A stretch of DNA of 64,000 nt. It comes from Escherichia phage MIZ6. The notes under the pieces are model-generated. The model saw nothing but the letters and a program-made list of their open reading frames with translations. It was not told where the DNA came from and did not search any database. The position numbers were made by a program, and so were the translations under genes. Shown piece by piece: positions 1,234-62,653 of the stretch. Each line of letters opens with the position of its first letter. Positions within the stretch are counted from its first letter, which is position 1. Location of the stretch: sequence record OR192075.1; one strand, 5' to 3'.

Positions 1234-3990
1234 ATGGCAGATTTAAGCAGAATCCAATTTAAACGCACTAGCACTAAAGGTCGTAAACCTGATGCTAGTG
1301 CGATGAATCCGGGGGAATTGGCAATCAACCTTGCGGATCAATATCTTCTTACTAAAAATGATTCCGGTGCTATTATCAATTTAAGTTGTCCTCCGGTGTA
1401 TGACCGACAAGTTAGATTCGCTGGTAAGGTTGACGGTGACAACTATATTTTAGGTAAAACTGCTAACTATATGGATGATTCAACCGCTCGCGACCTTAAC
1501 AAATTTGGTGCGTTTCGAACGAATAATGCTGATGGATGGTCTAACTTGATTCTGAACATTCCTCATTCTAGCGGTAAAGCACACGGTCGCGGGTTTGAAT
1601 TTCAATATGGTTCTAGTTCCTCTCAGGTTAAAACCTATGGCTTTGATCAGGATGGTAACAAGAGATTCAGTTACCGCATGTATCATGAAGGCGATAAACC
1701 TACACCATCGGAATTGAACGTTTACAGCAAACAAGAAGTAGATAGAATGTTTGTTAAAAACGTTAAAATGTCTACTCCTCCCGATGTAAGTCGAGGATAT
1801 TTCAAAATTGCTACCGCCATGATCCCCCAGCAAGGAAAAATGGCATTTATTCGTATCTATGGTGGTAATGGATATAACGTTAACTCTATGGATCAAGTTG
1901 ACTTTGTAGAAATCGTGATTCGTGGTGGGAATGGAAATCCTAAAGGTGTTAGTATTGCAGCATATCGACGAAATGCTTTAAATCAGCTTGAAGTATTTGC
2001 TATTAATACATCTGGTGATAACTATGATATCTATGTAAAATATGGTCGATACACCGATAACGTTATTGTAGAATTTGGAAAAACGGTCGATGTTAATTTA
2101 ACTGTTCATGATGTTCCGGCTTTTTCGGAAGCAAAACCTGCTGGTACTACCTTTGAAGGTCGTGTTATTACGATGTTCAACACCGAAAACAAAGCCGGAA
2201 CGTTGATGTTTGATAATAACTCACAAGCAACCTATGATATTGTGAGCCTTAGCAATGCACCTGATAATAGCCGAAATTATCTGCGTAAATTCCGTAGCAA
2301 AGCGAATGAAACAATATGGCATGAAACTGTTCAAGGTGATGTGTATCGTCTGGCTACTGGTTCCACCGACCAAAAAGAAGTATTAAAAATTGTTGGTAGT
2401 GATGGTTTATTTGTCAATAGACTTCATCTGCAAGGCAATAACGCGATTCGTATGTGGCGTCCTACTGGTTGTAGTAACTATTTTGAATATATGGATCAGC
2501 GAGACGGGGCTAATAAACGTCAAGGCTGGTTTGGTTTTGGTTCTACAGAAACCAACGATTTTCAATGGTATAGTGACGAAGGTAAAAACTTTGTTAAGCT
2601 AGAAGCAAGTGGTCAAGTATCTTTAAGCGCAGGTGCAACCAAAATTGTATACACTAATGGTCAATATGTAGCTGCCAATTCTGATGCATACCGTATGATC
2701 TTTGGTAATTATGGTGCATTCTGGCGTAATGACGGCACTAAAGTTTATCTTCTTTCTACTGCCGAAAATGATCGTTTTGGTGGATGGAATAGCTATCGTC
2801 CATTCATTTATGATTTAACTTCCGGTAACGTTCAATTAGGCGGTGATGGTAACGAAGATGCATTAACGTTAGAATGTGCTTCTCGTGCCGCTCGCTTTAG
2901 TAATGACGTTTACATTAAGAAAGGGCTTTTGACTTTCGACGCTGGGCGATTAAATTCCCGCGATTACTTCCGGTTTAACCATTGGGGCGATAGCAATAAC
3001 GGTCGCGATAACATCCTACAGATTGAAGACAGTCAGGGCGCACATTTTATCACTGAACGTGCTATGGGTACTGGTAACATAACAACACGTTTTAGAGGCT
3101 TTGTACGTGTAGAATCTGGTGAAATTGCATTTGATGCTAACCGTGGTTCTTCTTCGCAATTTAGTCTCCATACATGGGGTAATGAATCACGAAAACAAGT
3201 TTTTGAATGTAAGGATGCAACAAGTTATCATTGGTATACCGAACGTACTGCGGGTGGCACTGGTCCGGTTAAGTTCTCTGTTGCAGGTTCTTTCTATAGC
3301 GGAAGCGATGTTAACGTAGGCGGTAGTCTGAATTTTGGTAATGCTATTCAACGCGGCGCTAGCGTCATTACTATAGATTCTGGTTCTGCGGGTGCTGGTT
3401 CTTTTGCATCTCAACATGATGATAACGTCAAAGCACCTATTTTCCAACGTTTAGACCGTGGTGATGCGTCTATATATGTTCCTTTGATTAAGCAACGTTA
3501 TGTTCAAGGTGCAGTAACATTCTCGTTGGGTATGCTTCTTAACGAAGGTTCATGGCGAGTTCATGTTAAAGGTTCTGGTGTTGAATCTAATACTACCTTC
3601 TATAAAAACGGCGATTTCCAAGCTGGACGCAATGGTAACTTTAACGACGTTTACATTCGCTCTGACTCTCGCCTGAAAATCAACAAGGAAGAGTATAAAG
3701 AGAATGCTACCGATAAAGTAAATAATCTTAAGGTATATTCCTACGATAAGGTTAAATCTTTAACCGACCGTACTGTAATCGCTCATGAAGTTGGTATTAT
3801 TGCTCAGGATCTTGAAAAAGAATTGCCGGAAGCAGTAACAACTTCTAACATCGGCGACCCAGATAACCCAGAAGAGATCTTAACAATTTCTAACTCTGCT
3901 GTCAACGCTCTTTTAATTAAGGCGTTTCAGGAAATGAGCGAAGAATTGAAAGCCGTTAAAGCTGAACTAGCGGAACTTAAAAAGAATTAA
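1234..3990 (+). CDS. 37: Long tail fiber distal subunit gp37-like, with C-terminal intramolecular chaperone (peptidase S74-like) domain
   Basis: N-terminus MADLSRIQFKRTSTKGRKPDASAMNPGELAINL matches T4 gp37 N-terminus; conserved AGAGSFASQ..YVPLIKQRYVQG block; C-terminal ~130 aa resemble the autoproteolytic chaperone domain of T5 pb1 / endosialidase. Confidence 0.8.
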   Translation: MADLSRIQFKRTSTKGRKPDASAMNPGELAINLADQYLLTKNDSGAIINLSCPPVYDRQVRFAGKVDGDNYILGKTANYMDDSTARDLNKFGAFRTNNADGWSNLILNIPHSSGKAHGRGFEFQYGSSSSQVKTYGFDQDGNKRFSYRMYHEGDKPTPSELNVYSKQEVDRMFVKNVKMSTPPDVSRGYFKIATAMIPQQGKMAFIRIYGGNGYNVNSMDQVDFVEIVIRGGNGNPKGVSIAAYRRNALNQLEVFAINTSGDNYDIYVKYGRYTDNVIVEFGKTVDVNLTVHDVPAFSEAKPAGTTFEGRVITMFNTENKAGTLMFDNNSQATYDIVSLSNAPDNSRNYLRKFRSKANETIWHETVQGDVYRLATGSTDQKEVLKIVGSDGLFVNRLHLQGNNAIRMWRPTGCSNYFEYMDQRDGANKRQGWFGFGSTETNDFQWYSDEGKNFVKLEASGQVSLSAGATKIVYTNGQYVAANSDAYRMIFGNYGAFWRNDGTKVYLLSTAENDRFGGWNSYRPFIYDLTSGNVQLGGDGNEDALTLECASRAARFSNDVYIKKGLLTFDAGRLNSRDYFRFNHWGDSNNGRDNILQIEDSQGAHFITERAMGTGNITTRFRGFVRVESGEIAFDANRGSSSQFSLHTWGNESRKQVFECKDATSYHWYTERTAGGTGPVKFSVAGSFYSGSDVNVGGSLNFGNAIQRGASVITIDSGSAGAGSFASQHDDNVKAPIFQRLDRGDASIYVPLIKQRYVQGAVTFSLGMLLNEGSWRVHVKGSGVESNTTFYKNGDFQAGRNGNFNDVYIRSDSRLKINKEEYKENATDKVNNLKVYSYDKVKSLTDRTVIAHEVGIIAQDLEKELPEAVTTSNIGDPDNPEEILTISNSAVNALLIKAFQEMSEELKAVKAELAELKKN

Positions 3991-4998: not shown

Positions 4999-5243
4999 TG
5001 GCGCATAGACGCGCCTGAATCGCATTTTGACGCTGTATGATGAAAACAGGTAGCGTACCAGTCATCGGCTTGTTTGTCTTCGTCAGAAAACGCGTAATTT
5101 CGTTGTACGCCGTTTTCTACTTTGACCAGTGCGATAGCTGTTTCTGGAAGATCAATCAATCGGACAAAATCACCATCTTCCCACTCTACACGAGCAATAT
5201 CATAGCCCATCTCAAAGTATACAATCGCTTGTTCTAATTTCAT
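4995..5243 (-). CDS. Hypothetical protein (82 aa)
   Basis: ATG overlaps stop of upstream gene (ATGA coupling). Confidence 0.4.
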   Translation of the reverse strand: MKLEQAIVYFEMGYDIARVEWEDGDFVRLIDLPETAIALVKVENGVQRNYAFSDEDKQADDWYATCFHHTASKCDSGASMRQ

Positions 5244-5569
5244 TCTGGAAACTTCCCGTAAACATTCTCTGCCAGCTTACGTGCGTCTTTTACAATATCT
5301 TTCATGTAATGACTATAATTTTTAGCTAGATCAATGATGCAATCAACAAAGAAGTAATAGCGTCGCAGTGCTACCATCTCAACATCTTCAAGATGACCAT
5401 TTTCTCCAATCTCTGAAATATGTTTAAATTCCTTTCGGATCGCGTCCATCGCGACATTAACTTCTTTTATAATATCTTTCGTATTATATGCACCTCGACT
5501 AATCAAAATTTTGGTTATGTCCTCTGCTTTTTCGTGAAAGTTGTCAATTTCAAACTCGATCATAATCAC
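5240..5569 (-). CDS. Hypothetical protein (109 aa)
   Basis: Track ORF; shares C-terminal pattern with ORF 5678..6010 (possible paralogs). Confidence 0.45.
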   Translation of the reverse strand: MIMIEFEIDNFHEKAEDITKILISRGAYNTKDIIKEVNVAMDAIRKEFKHISEIGENGHLEDVEMVALRRYYFFVDCIIDLAKNYSHYMKDIVKDARKLAENVYGKFPE

Positions 5570-5677: not shown

Positions 5678-6010
5678 TCAAAATTTATCGAAAATATTCT
5701 CTGTCATAATTCTTGCTTCGTCGATTATTTTCGTCATGTTCATGGTGTAGTTATGATCATTTAGTGCTTTAATGACAACGAGCAAGGAATCTAAAAACAC
5801 TCGATACCGGGTATATTCTACGCTATTTGTGAATACCGATGTTTTCTCTACTTTATCGATCAGATAGCCTAAAACCGATAGCGCCTCGTTTACTTCCCTT
5901 GTTACTTTATCGGCGCTAAACAACACCGGATAAAGACGCGGTGTGATTAACCGCGCTGCCTCTTTCAATTCGGTCGCTTTCCAGGATTCATATTTGTCAT
6001 AGTTAAACAT
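5678..6010 (-). CDS. Hypothetical protein (110 aa)
   Basis: Track ORF; possible paralog of 5240..5569. Confidence 0.45.
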   Translation of the reverse strand: MFNYDKYESWKATELKEAARLITPRLYPVLFSADKVTREVNEALSVLGYLIDKVEKTSVFTNSVEYTRYRVFLDSLLVVIKALNDHNYTMNMTKIIDEARIMTENIFDKF

Positions 6011-6022
6011 TGTATAATCTCC

Positions 6023-6355
6023 TTACAGATGAAAACCTGTTACGATCACCGCATCGATCGTACCGCTAGGAATAAACGGTTCGCCCTCTTTTATTTCAAC
6101 TTTGAATTGATGCCATTTCGCTAATACTTCTTCCGGTACACCCAGCGATTCGGCGTCTGCTTTAGTTTCATCCATAATCCAACTAGGCTGCATGAGAGCA
6201 TAGTTTACATAGTCCATTTCTGGGGTCATGTCATCAATGTTAATATATTTGCAGTTGACGCGTTTCAGAATTTCAAATTCTTTATTGTCAACCTGTACCA
6301 TGTATAATTCAGTAGTTTCTGGAATCAGTTCCCAAACAATCAGTACATTTTTCAT
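6023..6355 (-). CDS. Hypothetical protein (110 aa)
   Basis: Track ORF in minus-strand early gene array. Confidence 0.45.
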   Translation of the reverse strand: MKNVLIVWELIPETTELYMVQVDNKEFEILKRVNCKYINIDDMTPEMDYVNYALMQPSWIMDETKADAESLGVPEEVLAKWHQFKVEIKEGEPFIPSGTIDAVIVTGFHL

Positions 6356-6363
6356 AGTTCACC

Positions 6364-6732
6364 TCACTTAACAAAGATTTTCTTTAATGCTTTCAGGATC
6401 GTTGCTTCCGGCGCTTCTTCCGGTGGAGGAAGCAATTCTACCACTTCCTCTTCCAACTCGATATAGTCTACCAGATATTCTACATAGAATGCAAGTGCTT
6501 CCATGAAATTAGATGCTACATCCGATTCACCACACGCACCTACATGCATTGTATAAACACCACTGCGATCAAGTTTGTGGATGCTTCCCAGATAGTTCCG
6601 GTTATACCAGACTTCCCACACTTTCAGCTTTCCAGTTTTTGTTGCTGTTTTATAATCGGTTTCGTAATGATGCAATTGACGTTGCAAATCATTGATAATA
6701 ACACATTTTTCGTAATTGTTTTGAATTTCCAT
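6364..6732 (-). CDS. Hypothetical protein (122 aa)
   Basis: Track ORF, tightly packed with neighbours. Confidence 0.45.
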   Translation of the reverse strand: MEIQNNYEKCVIINDLQRQLHHYETDYKTATKTGKLKVWEVWYNRNYLGSIHKLDRSGVYTMHVGACGESDVASNFMEALAFYVEYLVDYIELEEEVVELLPPPEEAPEATILKALKKIFVK

Positions 6733-6742
6733 GATGTAATCC

Positions 6743-6934
6743 TCACTTATCGTTAAGAAGTTCTAAAACTTTCTGTCGTACTTTGTCAATATTGGTTGAT
6801 TCAAAAACTGTACGGTATCCCCAGCTTTGACCGTATGAGCGCGAGCAATCCCCATAACCCCATTGTTCAACCTGATAATATTCAAGGAATGGGTGCTGCC
6901 GAACTATGATACCATCGCGATTAAAAATTACCAT
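6743..6934 (-). CDS. Hypothetical protein (63 aa)
   Basis: ATG preceded by conserved GAGGATTATATT initiation region. Confidence 0.4.
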   Translation of the reverse strand: MVIFNRDGIIVRQHPFLEYYQVEQWGYGDCSRSYGQSWGYRTVFESTNIDKVRQKVLELLNDK

Positions 6935-6957
6935 AATATAATCCTCACGTCAACAAC

Positions 6958-7236
6958 TTATTTTCGGTTGTACTTCTGCCACTTTCGGTAATACTGCTTG
7001 TAATATTGTTTAATGTTTGGTGGTTCGTCACTATACATGTTATCAACCATCATGTCAATAAGACCTTCCGGTGTTTGATAGTTACCCGCTCGAATGAGTT
7101 CCTTAATCAAAAGATCTTGTGTCGCTTTATACTTGACAATAACAACTGTCTTTTCTGCCTTTCCAATTCCGATCCGGTCGTTAGCTCTCATAGCATCCCA
7201 CCAATCTTTTTTAAACTTCATGTTGTTAAATTTCAT
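6958..7236 (-). CDS. Hypothetical basic protein (92 aa)
   Basis: Track ORF. Confidence 0.4.
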   Translation of the reverse strand: MKFNNMKFKKDWWDAMRANDRIGIGKAEKTVVIVKYKATQDLLIKELIRAGNYQTPEGLIDMMVDNMYSDEPPNIKQYYKQYYRKWQKYNRK

Positions 7237-7239
7237 AAT

Positions 7240-8040
7240 TTAACCCTTCTTATATTCGCAAACATATTGAGTACCATAATCATAGCTAATGCGACCTTTC
7301 TCGATGACTTCAAAGCGGATTTCATCGTTTTCCCCTACCCACATTTTGTACTCGTTGAAGTATCCTGCTACATCCGGTTTGCTCATACCAACAACCATAT
7401 TTTTATATTGTTTGCTGCGTGTCAGATTTGATTTAAACACTTCGCGCTCATCAACATATACGAAAGAAGACAATTCACCTTCGGTCATGGTCATTTTCAG
7501 CTTGCCGCCCTTGTTGCCATAAGTAGAGTTGCCATACAATGGATCTTTGCGGCTGTCTGTTTCAATACCATCAATGATTTTCCATGTAAATTTTGCAATG
7601 CACTGATAAGTGATAGATCCAGAGATTTTCTCTTCTTTCTTCTGTTCTTCCACCACTTTTTCTTCCTGTTTCGGTTGTTCTTCTTCAACCTTCGCAGAAG
7701 TCTCTGAATCGCTTTCTGACTCGGTTTCTTCTTTAGGTAATACATTCATCAAGTTTTGGATTTGAGCGTTGTATACAGCCTCCAGTGGCTGGATCTGTCC
7801 GATATTGATCATTGTATCACGAACAGTTTTATTCCAGTTGCGTTGCTCTTGTTTCAGAGACGGATCAATCTTAACAGCCTTAACATACACCTCATGAAGT
7901 TTCGAATCCAGTGCGGAGATTGACTCATTAGCACAAATAAACTTCTCTGATTTGGTAGTGGCTTTAGCGCAATCAAAGGACGCAGCATTAGCACCGAAAG
8001 CAGTAGCGGAAAGAACGATCGCAGCGATAATGTTTTTCAT
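7240..8040 (-). CDS. Secreted protein with DUF1311 / LprI-like (lysozyme-inhibitor family) N-terminal domain
   Basis: Signal peptide MKNIIAAIVLSATAFGANA; FDCAKATT..EKFIC..LDSKLHEVY motif typical of DUF1311; acidic linker; SD GAGGAA; own promoter. Confidence 0.6.
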   Translation of the reverse strand: MKNIIAAIVLSATAFGANAASFDCAKATTKSEKFICANESISALDSKLHEVYVKAVKIDPSLKQEQRNWNKTVRDTMINIGQIQPLEAVYNAQIQNLMNVLPKEETESESDSETSAKVEEEQPKQEEKVVEEQKKEEKISGSITYQCIAKFTWKIIDGIETDSRKDPLYGNSTYGNKGGKLKMTMTEGELSSFVYVDEREVFKSNLTRSKQYKNMVVGMSKPDVAGYFNEYKMWVGENDEIRFEVIEKGRISYDYGTQYVCEYKKG

Positions 8041-8074
8041 AATATATTCCTCAATGTTTTGTCTTGATGGGAGT

Positions 8075-8103
8075 ATCTTACTACTCCCTTAATCCGGTGT
8101 CAA
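8075..8103 (-). promoter_or_regulatory. sigma70-like early promoter (TTGACA-17-TAAGAT) embedded in GGGAGTA..TACTCCC palindrome
   Basis: Minus-strand reading of tgtcaa (8098-8103) and atctta (8075-8080); palindrome 8069-8088. Confidence 0.4.
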
Positions 8104-8114
8104 CTACTTTTAAA

Positions 8115-8414
8115 TTATTTTCGCCATTCACCGGAAACAATAAAGTTTGTAAAGTGATCGTGGTCCGTGATAACGTCATTAAGTACCATATGTGGATACA
8201 CTTTAGTGATAATTTTACTAAGTACCATATGCGGATATGCTTTAGTGTAATCACGTTTACGATCAGTCATCCAGCCAACGAAAGTTGGTGCAAAGTACGG
8301 TACACCGTCAGACGATGCCATATTAAACCCTTTATCAACCATAAATGCAGCCGCCCTAAGATTTTTAATTGAAGTAGTGCGACTAATTTCAAAAACTTTA
8401 TCGGTAAAATTCAT
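8115..8414 (-). CDS. Hypothetical protein with internal tandem repeat
   Basis: Start moved to internal ATG (MNFTDK); contains KAYPHMVL / KVYPHMVL duplicated segment. Confidence 0.4.
   Translation of the reverse strand: MNFTDKVFEISRTTSIKNLRAAAFMVDKGFNMASSDGVPYFAPTFVGWMTDRKRDYTKAYPHMVLSKIITKVYPHMVLNDVITDHDHFTNFIVSGEWRK
8181..8251. repeat. Direct tandem repeat (~33 bp units, ~39 bp period) inside ORF 8115..8414
   Basis: aagtaccatatgtggatacactttagtgataat repeated as aagtaccatatgcggatatgctttagtgtaat. Confidence 0.5.
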
Positions 8415-8415
8415 T

Positions 8416-8625
8416 TTAAGCCCCCGCTCGTGCATTAATACGCATTTTCTGCATAGCCATGATCTGGTTTACTGCTTCTTCTTTACGTTCTTGCGTGATA
8501 ACGTGACCAGATTCCGCAAACTCTCCCGCAACTTCTTCTACGATCTCGCGAACTTGAGAACGTCCAAAGATGCGGTTTCCTTCGTAGCTCATAAACTCGG
8601 TTACTACTTGCTCGATAGATTTCAT
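8416..8625 (-). CDS. Hypothetical protein (69 aa)
   Basis: SD AAGGAG; own promoter upstream. Confidence 0.45.
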   Translation of the reverse strand: MKSIEQVVTEFMSYEGNRIFGRSQVREIVEEVAGEFAESGHVITQERKEEAVNQIMAMQKMRINARAGA

Positions 8626-8655
8626 GTGATTCTCCTTTCGTTTCGGTGTGGGAGT

Positions 8656-8684
8656 ATGTTAATACTCCCATTTCTTTACGTCAA
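8656..8684 (-). promoter_or_regulatory. sigma70-like promoter (TTGACG-17-TAACAT) with GGGAGTA..TACTCCC palindrome
   Basis: Palindrome gggagtatgttaatactccc at 8650-8669 overlaps -10. Confidence 0.35.
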
Positions 8685-8691
8685 CCAGTTT

Positions 8692-8934
8692 TTAGAAATT
8701 TTTCGCTTCTTCTTCGGTCATCATCACCGCGCATTCGTGCATAACTTTGAAAACCGGGTCAATCATATCGAATGCTTCGCTGGACAGTTTACGAGAAGCG
8801 ATTTTGATTGCTTCAACGTCTTCTACTACAGGAACAAAAACAGTTTTCAGTTCGTCGAGCACGGCAGCTTCTTTTTCATTCAGGAAGATCCCAGCGTCGT
8901 ACAGTGCAACTTCGATAACATTAACTTTAACCAT
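8692..8934 (-). CDS. Hypothetical acidic protein (80 aa)
   Basis: SD GGAGGA; own promoter upstream. Confidence 0.45.
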   Translation of the reverse strand: MVKVNVIEVALYDAGIFLNEKEAAVLDELKTVFVPVVEDVEAIKIASRKLSSEAFDMIDPVFKVMHECAVMMTEEEAKNF

Positions 8935-8967
8935 TTTATTTCCTCCAGTTCGTTTCGGTATGGGAGT

Positions 8968-8996
8968 ATAATACTACCGATGACCTTTGGCGTCAA
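8968..8996 (-). promoter_or_regulatory. sigma70-like promoter (TTGACG-17-TATTAT)
   Basis: Minus-strand reading of cgtcaa and ataata; degenerate GGGAGTA palindrome. Confidence 0.35.
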
Positions 8997-9198
8997 CTGC
9001 TTTTTTATTATTTTCGTGAAAATTTTTCGTCGCCTCATGTGCTTTTCGCTGGGCTTCTTGTTGTGCTTGCTGGCGTGCTGCCTCTTGTGAAGCCATAACG
9101 GAAGCATTTGCAGCAGTTACAGCCGCTACCATCGCTGCGGTATTAGCATTTACAGTACATGCACTAGCCAGCAAAGCAATTGCAATCATTTTCTTCAT
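8974..9198 (-). CDS. Small secreted or lipoprotein-like protein (74 aa)
   Basis: N-terminal signal peptide MKKMIAIALLASAC with Cys; Ala/Gln-rich mature part. Confidence 0.4.
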   Translation of the reverse strand: MKKMIAIALLASACTVNANTAAMVAAVTAANASVMASQEAARQQAQQEAQRKAHEATKNFHENNKKAVDAKGHR

Positions 9199-9365
9199 AG
9201 TTTCCCCTTTAGGTTATCTTCGACCTTCACCCATTCCGCGTATTCTTGCGCGGCTACTTTCGGATTTAGTCCGTCTTCGTACATTGCTTCAAGTAATTCT
9301 TCGTCGGTGGGCTTATACCCTAGATAAGCCTCCACCTGATTTTTCCAAATTTTATACCAGTTCAT
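9195..9365 (-). CDS. Hypothetical protein (56 aa)
   Basis: Start moved to internal ATG (MNWYKIW) to remove overlap with upstream gene. Confidence 0.3.
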   Translation of the reverse strand: MNWYKIWKNQVEAYLGYKPTDEELLEAMYEDGLNPKVAAQEYAEWVKVEDNLKGKL

Positions 9366-9369
9366 ATTA

Positions 9370-9642
9370 TCACCAGTCAAGAGCGCGTGTCTCTGCGTCT
9401 TCCCATGCTTGATCCATAACAGCCTTGAAAACATATTCTAAAGTATCATCTTTAGAGAATCCGAAGACCTTAGACGGAATATCTTCAATTGCTACTCCCG
9501 CGACTTCTGCATTACGCGCTTGGCAATAATGCAACTCTAAGTTATCGAGATAGCGACCGCCTAATTTCTCCATATCATCCCAGCATTTCCAGTAACCTAC
9601 TTTATTTGCAATCGCTAACACCTTGCTGTTTTCGTTGTTCAT
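9370..9642 (-). CDS. Hypothetical protein (90 aa)
   Basis: Start moved to ATG (MNNENSK) with SD AAGGAG; promoter and terminator upstream. Confidence 0.4.
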   Translation of the reverse strand: MNNENSKVLAIANKVGYWKCWDDMEKLGGRYLDNLELHYCQARNAEVAGVAIEDIPSKVFGFSKDDTLEYVFKAVMDQAWEDAETRALDW

Positions 9643-52330: not shown

Positions 52331-52361
52331 AATATAATCCTCTAGTTGTTTAAATGGGAGT

Positions 52362-52390
52362 ATCTTACTACTCCCGTTTCATCATGTCAA
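52362..52390 (-). promoter_or_regulatory. sigma70-like promoter (TTGACA-17-TAAGAT) inside GGGAGTATCTTACTACTCCC palindrome
   Basis: 20-bp palindrome identical to the one at 8069-8088. Confidence 0.4.
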
Positions 52391-53241: not shown

Positions 53242-53272
53242 TGTTGATTCTCCTTCTTGATTAGATGGGAGT

Positions 53273-53301
53273 ATTTTACTACTCCCATTTCTTATTGTCA
53301 A
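53273..53301 (-). promoter_or_regulatory. sigma70-like promoter (TTGACA-17-TAAAAT) inside GGGAGTATTTTACTACTCCC palindrome
   Basis: Minus-strand reading of tgtcaa (53296-53301) and atttta (53273-53278). Confidence 0.4.
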
Positions 53302-61965: not shown

Positions 61966-62364
61966 TTAAGCCAATCGAGTGAGTTTATAAATTGTTTTAA
62001 AGCATAGAGCTTTGATATCGTCTAAAACGCTCTGTAACGAGCTATCAACATCATTATAAATCTCACTAGCCATTTGCGTTAACTCTTGCAAATAGGCAAT
62101 TTCGCTCATCTCCTTGCGGACGACCAACGTTGGCCGATAACGACCAGTGATCCCAATATTGGTTTCAGTGAAATCATCAACCAATTCTTGCATTTCAAGA
62201 TAGAACTCTTCTAGAGCCTTATGTTTTGCATAAGATCCAGGACCAGTTACCCCAAAATGCGCAGAATGCATATAAGTAACACTCATCAGACATTCACCGA
62301 TAAAGCGGTCAACTTTATTATCTTTTCCATCTTCGGACGTCTTTCGAAAATCACTGAATTTCAT
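61966..62364 (-). CDS. Putative ferritin-like / Dps-like protein (~132 aa)
   Basis: Start moved to ATG (MKFSDF) with SD GGAGA; H..H..V.G......H..LEE......D..TE pattern loosely resembles a Dps ferroxidase helix pair. Confidence 0.3.
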   Translation of the reverse strand: MKFSDFRKTSEDGKDNKVDRFIGECLMSVTYMHSAHFGVTGPGSYAKHKALEEFYLEMQELVDDFTETNIGITGRYRPTLVVRKEMSEIAYLQELTQMASEIYNDVDSSLQSVLDDIKALCFKTIYKLTRLA

Positions 62365-62653
62365 GTTCTCGATTCTCCATATTATGCAACATAACAAACT
62401 GTTGTGCGGCATATTCCCCCATAATAAAACACTGCTTAGAATCCATACATTTACTACGAGCATACATCTTCATAATATGGGCATGAAATTTCTGGCTGGT
62501 TTCAATGGAAGGAGATATTTTGTTTACATATACTATCATTGCACCGTCGAAATAATCAGTAAAGTCACCAGTTGGATCATATTGATCAGCACTGACACTT
62601 CCGACCGCAGTCAAGCATATTGCCGCTGTTAGAGTTTTACGAATAAATGACAT
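62351..62653 (-). CDS. Small secreted protein (100 aa)
   Basis: Signal peptide MSFIRKTLTAAICLTAVGSVSA; SD GGGGGA lies in the 3' arm of an upstream hairpin. Confidence 0.4.
   Translation of the reverse strand: MSFIRKTLTAAICLTAVGSVSADQYDPTGDFTDYFDGAMIVYVNKISPSIETSQKFHAHIMKMYARSKCMDSKQCFIMGEYAAQQFVMLHNMENREHEIQ

Follow-up and report, generated by a model that had tools for sequence, protein, structure and literature searches.

The window analysed here is a stretch of 64,000 nucleotides of Escherichia phage MIZ6 (OR192075.1), and the locus under study lies near its left end. An open reading frame of 266 aa with a promoter of its own and a strong Shine-Dalgarno sequence had been claimed in an earlier note on this DNA; the frame was found on the minus strand, which the note did not give, and both signals could be placed directly upstream of it. 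The features of the locus are as follows:

7240..8040, minus strand: gene for a secreted DUF1311 and beta-barrel protein, complete, 266 codons and a TAA stop
7984..8040, minus strand: Sec signal peptide, residues 1-19 (MKNIIAAIVLSATAFGANA), predicted cleavage before ASFDC
7723..7983, minus strand: DUF1311/LprI-like helical domain, residues 20-106, from Pfam, the alignment and the AF2 model
7621..7722, minus strand: acidic Glu/Lys/Gln/Pro linker, residues ~107-140, variable in length and predicted to be disordered
7243..7620, minus strand: C-terminal orphan domain, residues 141-266, of allelic type A, a predicted soluble beta-barrel
8048-8052, minus strand: Shine-Dalgarno sequence GAGGA, 7 nt 5' of the ATG, read from the sequence
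8098-8103 (-35) and 8075-8080 (-10), minus strand: early sigma-70-type promoter TTGACA-17-TAAGAT
8069-8088, minus strand: stem-loop GGGAGTA-N6-TACTCCC, overlapping the promoter
8069..8103, minus strand: PeSL cassette directly upstream of the gene, formed by the promoter and the overlapping stem-loop

Positions 6000-9500 of the window are 100% identical to 70001-73501 of Escherichia phage MIZ2 (OR167178), a Krischvirus and thus an RB49-like, T4-type myovirus. The 266-aa protein matched phrog_14799 over its full length (E 1.5e-156), and its orthologues RB49ORF260c, Phi1 ORF262 and GEC-3S BN201_0263 are all annotated as hypothetical. Within Krischvirus the gene was present in essentially all records and at the same locus (58 matching records for the region, about 59 with the protein), and the gene as a whole is under purifying selection. 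The gene was considered real on account of the full-length PHROG match, its presence in nearly all Krischvirus records and the purifying selection. Its locus belongs to the early, leftward-transcribed hyperplastic region and is flanked by the holin gene t and the topoisomerase gene gp52, and the neighbouring genes matched only PHROGs of unknown function.

The promoter, reading from 8103 to 8075, lies inside a PeSL, which is a mobile promoter and terminator cassette of RB49 and Phi1 (Arbiol et al. 2010; PMC2839356), and a promoter is annotated at the same site in phage GEC-3S. A search of the window with the PeSL motif TTGACA-N9-GGGAGTA-N6-TACTCCC returned four copies, all on the minus strand (8069-8103, 8650-8684, 52356-52390 and 53267-53301), against 0 expected by chance. 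From the PeSL promoter the gene is predicted to be expressed early in infection. A further promoter-like site close to the consensus, TTGACA-17-TATAGT (11 of 12 positions), was noticed at 7030-7058 on the minus strand within the downstream 92-aa gene, and it may drive the small ORFs that follow.

The signal peptide, the DUF1311 motif, the acidic linker and the C-terminal domain, all likewise proposed in the earlier note, were each recovered and could be given boundaries. As read from the sequence, the signal peptide MKNIIAAIVLSATAFGANA has a Lys in the n-region, a hydrophobic core of 15 residues and an A-N-A site immediately before ASFDC. The junction of A-x-A with ASFDC recurs in the homologues of Klebsiella phage Marfa, Aeromonas phage CC2 and Salmonella phage SSU5, which makes four independent phage lineages with the window's own. 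No lipobox was found in the sequence, and the predicted cleavage, between A-N-A and the following A, is of the signal peptidase I type. With these export signals the protein is predicted to be Sec-exported and soluble in the periplasm.

The profile search against DUF1311, which had been suggested as a check on the motif, gave a match to Pfam PF07007 (LprI) of 25.9 bits (E 1.4e-5) at a gathering cut-off of 22 bits, covering residues 24-76 of the protein and positions 1-71 of 106 of the profile, and the cut-off was also reached by seven of the eight other family members tested. Across 21 family members C24, C36, Y52 and Q66-R67-x-W69 do not vary, and the homologues of Marfa, CC2 and SSU5 keep them as well. 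A single Cys pair is invariant in either domain (C24/C36 in the N-domain, C147/C261 in the barrel), which fits the oxidising environment of the periplasm. In the AF2 model, built on the family alignment (A1), the N-domain was predicted with low confidence (pLDDT 50-65) as three helices (30-58, 62-78 and 84-100), and the linker, Glu/Lys/Gln/Pro-rich also in the alignment, had a pLDDT below 50, its disordered part being put at residues 101-137. A PDB profile search with the N-domain gave only a weak match (6ar7, E 0.054). When homologues were searched a second time, with the N-domain profile, only short single-domain or truncated DUF1311 proteins were obtained and no new architecture. The assignment to DUF1311 is not new, since a weak match of RB49ORF260c to this family was already recorded in 2006 (E 0.2; Nolan et al. 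2006; PMC1524935) and relatives now bear the RefSeq and UniProt labels 'lysozyme inhibitor LprI family' or 'LprI-like N-terminal domain'.

The C-terminal domain was supported by both the alignment and the AF2 model, in which residues 141-263 form a confident eight-stranded beta domain (pLDDT ~85) with Cys147 on the first and Cys261 on the last strand of the predicted barrel. The charged surface, the lack of a C-terminal aromatic beta-signal and the disulfide predicted between first and last strand, all read from the sequence, speak for a soluble barrel and against one in a membrane. A search of 1.84 billion representative proteins with the C-domain profile returned only the protein's own family and spurious repeat proteins, so that the domain was classed as an orphan, and BFVD added just the RB49 orthologue and two phage barrels of ~150 aa. 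The predicted barrel is equally like many eight-stranded barrels, among them lipocalins, TbpB/NHBA, Cap15 and outer-membrane barrels, so that inhibition cannot be read from the fold. A lipocalin-like barrel that binds a small ligand (a lipid, siderophore, nucleotide or signalling molecule), with the DUF1311 domain serving for oligomerisation or anchoring, would be one role for such a fold, and we regard it as very unlikely.

The most informative feature of the protein, absent from the earlier note, is the combination of an invariant N-domain with a hypervariable, exchangeable C-domain. Residues 1-106 hardly vary among 20 homologue clusters, and the last ~120 fall into at least six types, which are carried as follows:

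Type A: MIZ2, GEC-3S and Phi1
Type B: mainly prophages
Type C: RB49 and ECD7
Type D: UPWr_E1 and metagenomic Krischviruses
Type E: prophage L019 and others
Type F: JSE and E. coli chromosomes

Types A to E share 33-44% pairwise identity. Type F had no profile similarity to them past the first strand (hhalign probability 2.4%), and it too is predicted to have about eight strands after the same N-domain and linker. At the nucleotide level, the initial ~400 nt of the gene are 88-100% identical, after which similarity is lost to the point of being unalignable within the linker; it recovers ~1.07 kb from the ATG. This places a recombination breakpoint in the linker near nt +400 of the gene (~7640 in the window). 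Substitution rates were estimated by the method of Nei and Gojobori. For the N-domain, dS was 0.08-0.34 and dN 0-0.02 (dN/dS ~0-0.1), and between MIZ2 and RB49 there are 14 synonymous and 0 nonsynonymous differences in this part. For the C-domain, synonymous sites are saturated between types, with a dN of 0.4-1.2, and dN/dS within types is 0.08-0.34. The type-A cassette has a dS of 0-0.014, as against 0.125-0.34 for the N-domains of the backgrounds in which it occurs. This contrast between the two halves indicates that the barrel types are old, constrained and moved by recombination in the linker, and that they do not result from recent fast point mutation. Thus a conserved N-terminal part is followed by exchangeable C-terminal cassettes, the pattern by which polymorphic toxin/immunity-type loci are recognised, and the substitution estimates describe the barrel types as discrete, putative alleles of specificity, retained over time and reshuffled, as an arms race would give. 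The gene shares with the PeSL-flanked ORFan cassettes of RB49-like phages its place in the hyperplastic region and a canonical PeSL at its 5' side, but it differs from them in that the 5' breakpoint of exchange lies within the coding sequence, in the linker, and not in the PeSL, and in that the exchange reaches temperate prophages without a T4-type backbone.

Of 5426 complete E. coli genomes, 26 contain the same gene. The prophage gene has 92-97% nucleotide identity in the N-domain; the chromosomal copy compared directly with MIZ2 gave 92-95%, and the 26 copies are 96-100% identical among themselves in their N-domain part. In every one of these genomes the gene stands last in a ~35-kb prophage of siphovirus type, which encodes a large serine recombinase and is inserted in hicB. 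Nine prophage contigs of IMG/VR also carry the gene, and chromosomal and IMG/VR prophage copies together comprise barrel types B, E and F. The occurrence of near-identical gene halves in virulent T4-like phages and in a temperate prophage represents clear gene flow across lifestyles. In E. coli O55:H7 DEC5A (NZ_CP038394 ~2722.7-2758.3 kb; L107/L007) the antitoxin gene hicB was seen to be interrupted by the ~35-kb prophage, with hicA still whole beside the right end; the prophage encodes a large serine recombinase and an endolysin of the M15-type peptidase kind. Distant homologues were found in Klebsiella phage Marfa, in Aeromonas T4-like phages and in SSU5, all on the same plan of a signal peptide, the ASFDC-DUF1311 part, a charged linker and then an unrelated C-domain with two Cys. 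A truncated homologue, its C-terminal part missing at a contig end, was found within the early-left operon of a lambdoid prophage. What is new here is the orphan barrel and the modular cassette polymorphism common to virulent and temperate phages; the LprI-like label predates this analysis.

The earlier note had gone further and called the protein an LprI-type lysozyme inhibitor, which over-reads the name of the Pfam family. According to PMC7933661, it is the MliC domain of M. tuberculosis LprI to which the inhibition of lysozyme is ascribed. No match to MliC (PF09864) was obtained in Pfam for the 266-aa protein at E values up to 10 or for five other alleles at E values up to 0.1. The label 'lysozyme inhibitor LprI family protein' on these genes consequently rests on the wrong domain. 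The phage protein resembles LprI in having a DUF1311 domain followed by a beta-barrel, but it is no lipoprotein and its second domain is an orphan barrel, not MliC. With the DUF1311/LprI family at large (LprI, ScwA and Etsi4) it has in common the Cys-containing N-terminal motif, Q-R-x-W, a helical prediction and periplasmic export; it differs in being phage-encoded, in matching only positions 1-71 of 106 of the profile and in its polymorphic C-domain. With regard to inhibitors of the MliC/PliC/PhiA type, the phage protein had no HMM match, the conserved inhibitory loop motifs of these proteins were not identified in it, and unrelated barrels score higher, PhiA being only the 23rd in the comparison with the predicted barrel, after many of them. 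No lysozyme inhibitor was among the matches of the PDB profile search. An MliC/LprI-type inhibitor was thus ruled out as far as sequence is concerned, by the lack of MliC in Pfam and of any inhibitor in the PDB sequence and profile searches. That the protein is nonetheless a genuine LprI/MliC-type inhibitor of c-type (animal) lysozyme, protecting the infected or lysogenic cell, is highly improbable in view of these searches, of the absent lipobox and of the hypervariability of the barrel, which is not what one conserved target, as animal lysozyme would be, leads one to expect.

Two characterised members of the DUF1311 family suggest other roles. ScwA of Salmonella, a DUF1311-only protein, is periplasmic and disulfide-bonded, raises the levels of MltD, causes lysis when overproduced and confers no lysozyme resistance (PMC7933661). 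A modulator of this kind, which would bind or stabilise host lytic transglycosylases or other peptidoglycan enzymes and so affect the envelope, the timing of lysis or lysis from without, would suit the extreme conservation of the N-domain, as expected for a conserved host target, and the proximity of the gene to the holin gene. However, the DUF1311 domain of ScwA is C-terminal, within a different architecture, the prophage copies are found at a cargo position and not in a lysis cassette, and a modulator offers no reason for six ancient barrel alleles; this role was judged unlikely.

Etsi4 of EHEC, also a DUF1311 protein, is the immunity partner of a periplasm-acting, cell-wall-targeting T6SS effector, as shown by rescue upon co-expression (PMC12981562), and DUF1311 immunity partners of T6SS effectors have been predicted in Salmonella Dublin and Pantoea (PMC8867033, PMC9796082). 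Orphan immunity against periplasm-acting peptidoglycan hydrolase toxins, that is T6SS effectors or bacteriocins, with different barrel alleles matching different toxins, would accord with the only experimentally supported role of DUF1311, and both the polymorphic C-terminal alleles and the cargo position in prophages fit immunity islands. Against it, an effector gene was adjacent in no context examined. The downstream 92-aa gene, considered as a cognate partner, occurs in two forms, neither of which follows the barrel type, and was ruled out for want of co-variation; no adjacent co-varying partner gene was found, and the prophage copies lack the 92-aa neighbour. For the 266-aa protein, the defence libraries gave 0 matches with PADLOC, nothing meaningful with NCBIfam and nothing with the T6SS immunity set. 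Sakai ECs_0213, presumed to be Etsi4 from gene order only, scored 18.7 bits on LprI, which is under the cut-off, and had no profile similarity to the phage N-domain. A direct kinship to the validated immunity protein was therefore rejected, and the link to validated DUF1311 immunity proteins is, as judged from profiles, at the level of the Pfam family only. Moreover, the gain from such immunity would be small for a virulent phage with a short latent period, yet all Krischviruses retain the gene. On balance this orphan immunity against toxins is improbable, though the precedent itself remains relevant below.

T4 Spackle (gp61.3) is small (75 aa), single-domain, disulfide-bonded, helical, periplasmic and early, is highly conserved across 178 homologues and inhibits gp5 in the periplasm, known proteinaceous lysozyme inhibitors being usually beta-sheet proteins (PMC7677548). 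T4 Spackle and the phage DUF1311 protein are both products of early T4-type genes, Sec-exported and soluble in the periplasm, and both have a disulfide-bonded helical module, these properties being predicted for the latter here; the proposed role, to block incoming tail lysozyme, would be the same, so that the resemblance is at the level of function only. In contrast to Spackle, the mature DUF1311 protein has 247 aa and two domains, one half of it is hypervariable, and there is no sequence similarity. A phmmer search of all PDB chains with the 266-aa protein (E up to 10) gave chance-level matches to Tudor domains and no Spackle entry, and tblastn with the Spackle of Marfa gave no match to the window or to RB49 1-45 kb; homology to Spackle was rejected on these grounds. 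In RB49, no sp or imm is annotated at the syntenic positions. Marfa (L020, 144-425 and 2501-3259) carries both a Spackle homologue and a two-domain DUF1311 homologue, ~2 kb apart around the primase gene, and the two are therefore not simple substitutes for each other.

The lysozyme region of gp5 is 98-100% identical in 59 Krischvirus records and across all barrel types, and a barrel matched to the phage's own gp5 tail lysozyme was ruled out by this invariance. The invariance of gp5 would be consistent with that of the N-domain; the same is expected of any conserved gene pair in a tight genus.

The tips of the tail fibre protein gp37 (~1234-3990 in the window, plus strand) vary strongly among close Krischviruses, with 15%-91% identity over the last 300 aa, as observed in a comparison of the gp37 of the window with those of loci L001, L104-L106, L009, L016 and L028. 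The last ~60 residues are conserved in six of the eight proteins compared and resemble an intramolecular chaperone. The tip of Phi1 (barrel type A) is 91% identical to that of L009 (type C) and 87% identical to that of JSE (type F), and the tips of MIZ2 and Phi1, both of type A, are 52% identical. These values bear on masking of the phage's own receptor in the manner of T5 Llp or Cor, in which each barrel allele would block the outer-membrane receptor of the tail-fibre tip. A secreted early protein with discrete alleles, about as numerous as the common outer-membrane protein receptors, would be suited to such a task, but tip type and barrel type assort independently, and the lack of association between them weakens this candidate; in addition the protein is no lipoprotein, and an unrelated siphophage prophage carries the same alleles. 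We give receptor masking hardly any credence.

We favour a protective binder in the periplasm that would serve superinfection exclusion or immunity, with a role like that of Spackle but not its ancestry, and we would put its probability at roughly 0.4. The protein would consist of two disulfide-stabilised modules on a flexible acidic tether, the invariant helical DUF1311 domain and the exchangeable beta-barrel, and would reside in the periplasm, be it of the infected cell or, for the prophage copies, of the lysogen, where it would neutralise an incoming agent that must get through the cell wall or cut it. Its first candidate target would be the muralytic or penetration apparatus of superinfecting phages, by analogy to T4 Spackle. 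The DUF1311 module could engage a conserved partner, either an enzyme of the lysozyme or transglycosylase fold, such as the genus-invariant gp5, or a component of the host envelope, and the barrel could add a second, allele-specific binding specificity. For export, architecture, promoter, evolution and genomic contexts there is direct evidence from sequence and model, while the binding partners and the exclusion phenotype are what we infer only.

A function that would be of use early in lytic growth and in the lysogen alike points to exclusion or immunity, and with its periplasmic site and discrete old alleles a protective binder is the simplest reading. Such a protective role would fit an early gene in a virulent phage, a terminal, moron-like gene in a prophage and the precedent of DUF1311 proteins in T6SS immunity. 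Against the protective binder stand the DUF1311-only ScwA with its lack of lysozyme resistance, the match to only two thirds of PF07007 and the low-confidence model of the N-domain, and against its being a stand-in for Spackle stands the presence of both in Marfa.

A more specific form of the protective binder, which we consider doubtful, would be a polymorphic periplasmic recognition protein, in which an invariant DUF1311 effector or anchor is joined to a specificity barrel with at least six ancient alleles under balancing selection, traded by linker recombination between virulent T4-like phages and temperate E. coli siphophage prophages, each allele excluding or neutralising a different class of invader. 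Prophages would then protect their lysogens with a gene common to Krischviruses, possibly against Krischviruses themselves.

RB49-like phages are used in phage therapy cocktails. Superinfection-exclusion factors that act in the periplasm are, to our knowledge, understood in very few cases; T4 Spackle and T5 Llp belong to the small number whose mechanism has been solved. If the protective role is true, the gene would be a candidate for the missing sp/imm function of RB49-like phages, and it would provide a natural system for studying how the specificity of exclusion diversifies.

Several further observations were made in the surroundings of the gene and elsewhere in the window, all on the minus strand. 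Two adjacent ORFs of 109 aa and 110 aa (5240-5569 and 5678-6010) both belong to phrog_9457 and are tandem paralogues. The upstream ORF of 106 aa at 8115-8435 contains an internal direct repeat (…KAYPHMVLSKIITKVYPHMVLNDVITDH…). The region matching 8115-8435 differs in GEC-3S, though the 266-aa gene there is ~98% identical, and this cassette has accordingly been replaced. Two cassettes upstream, at 8974-9198, an ORF of 74 aa without a PHROG match begins with a signal-peptide- or lipobox-like sequence (MKKMIAIALLASAC...) and ends in a Gln/Ala-rich tail, and it is a second candidate for an exported early protein. Finally, an ORF of 100 aa at 62351-62653 has a signal-peptide-like N-terminus (MSFIRKTLTAAICLTAVGSVSA...).
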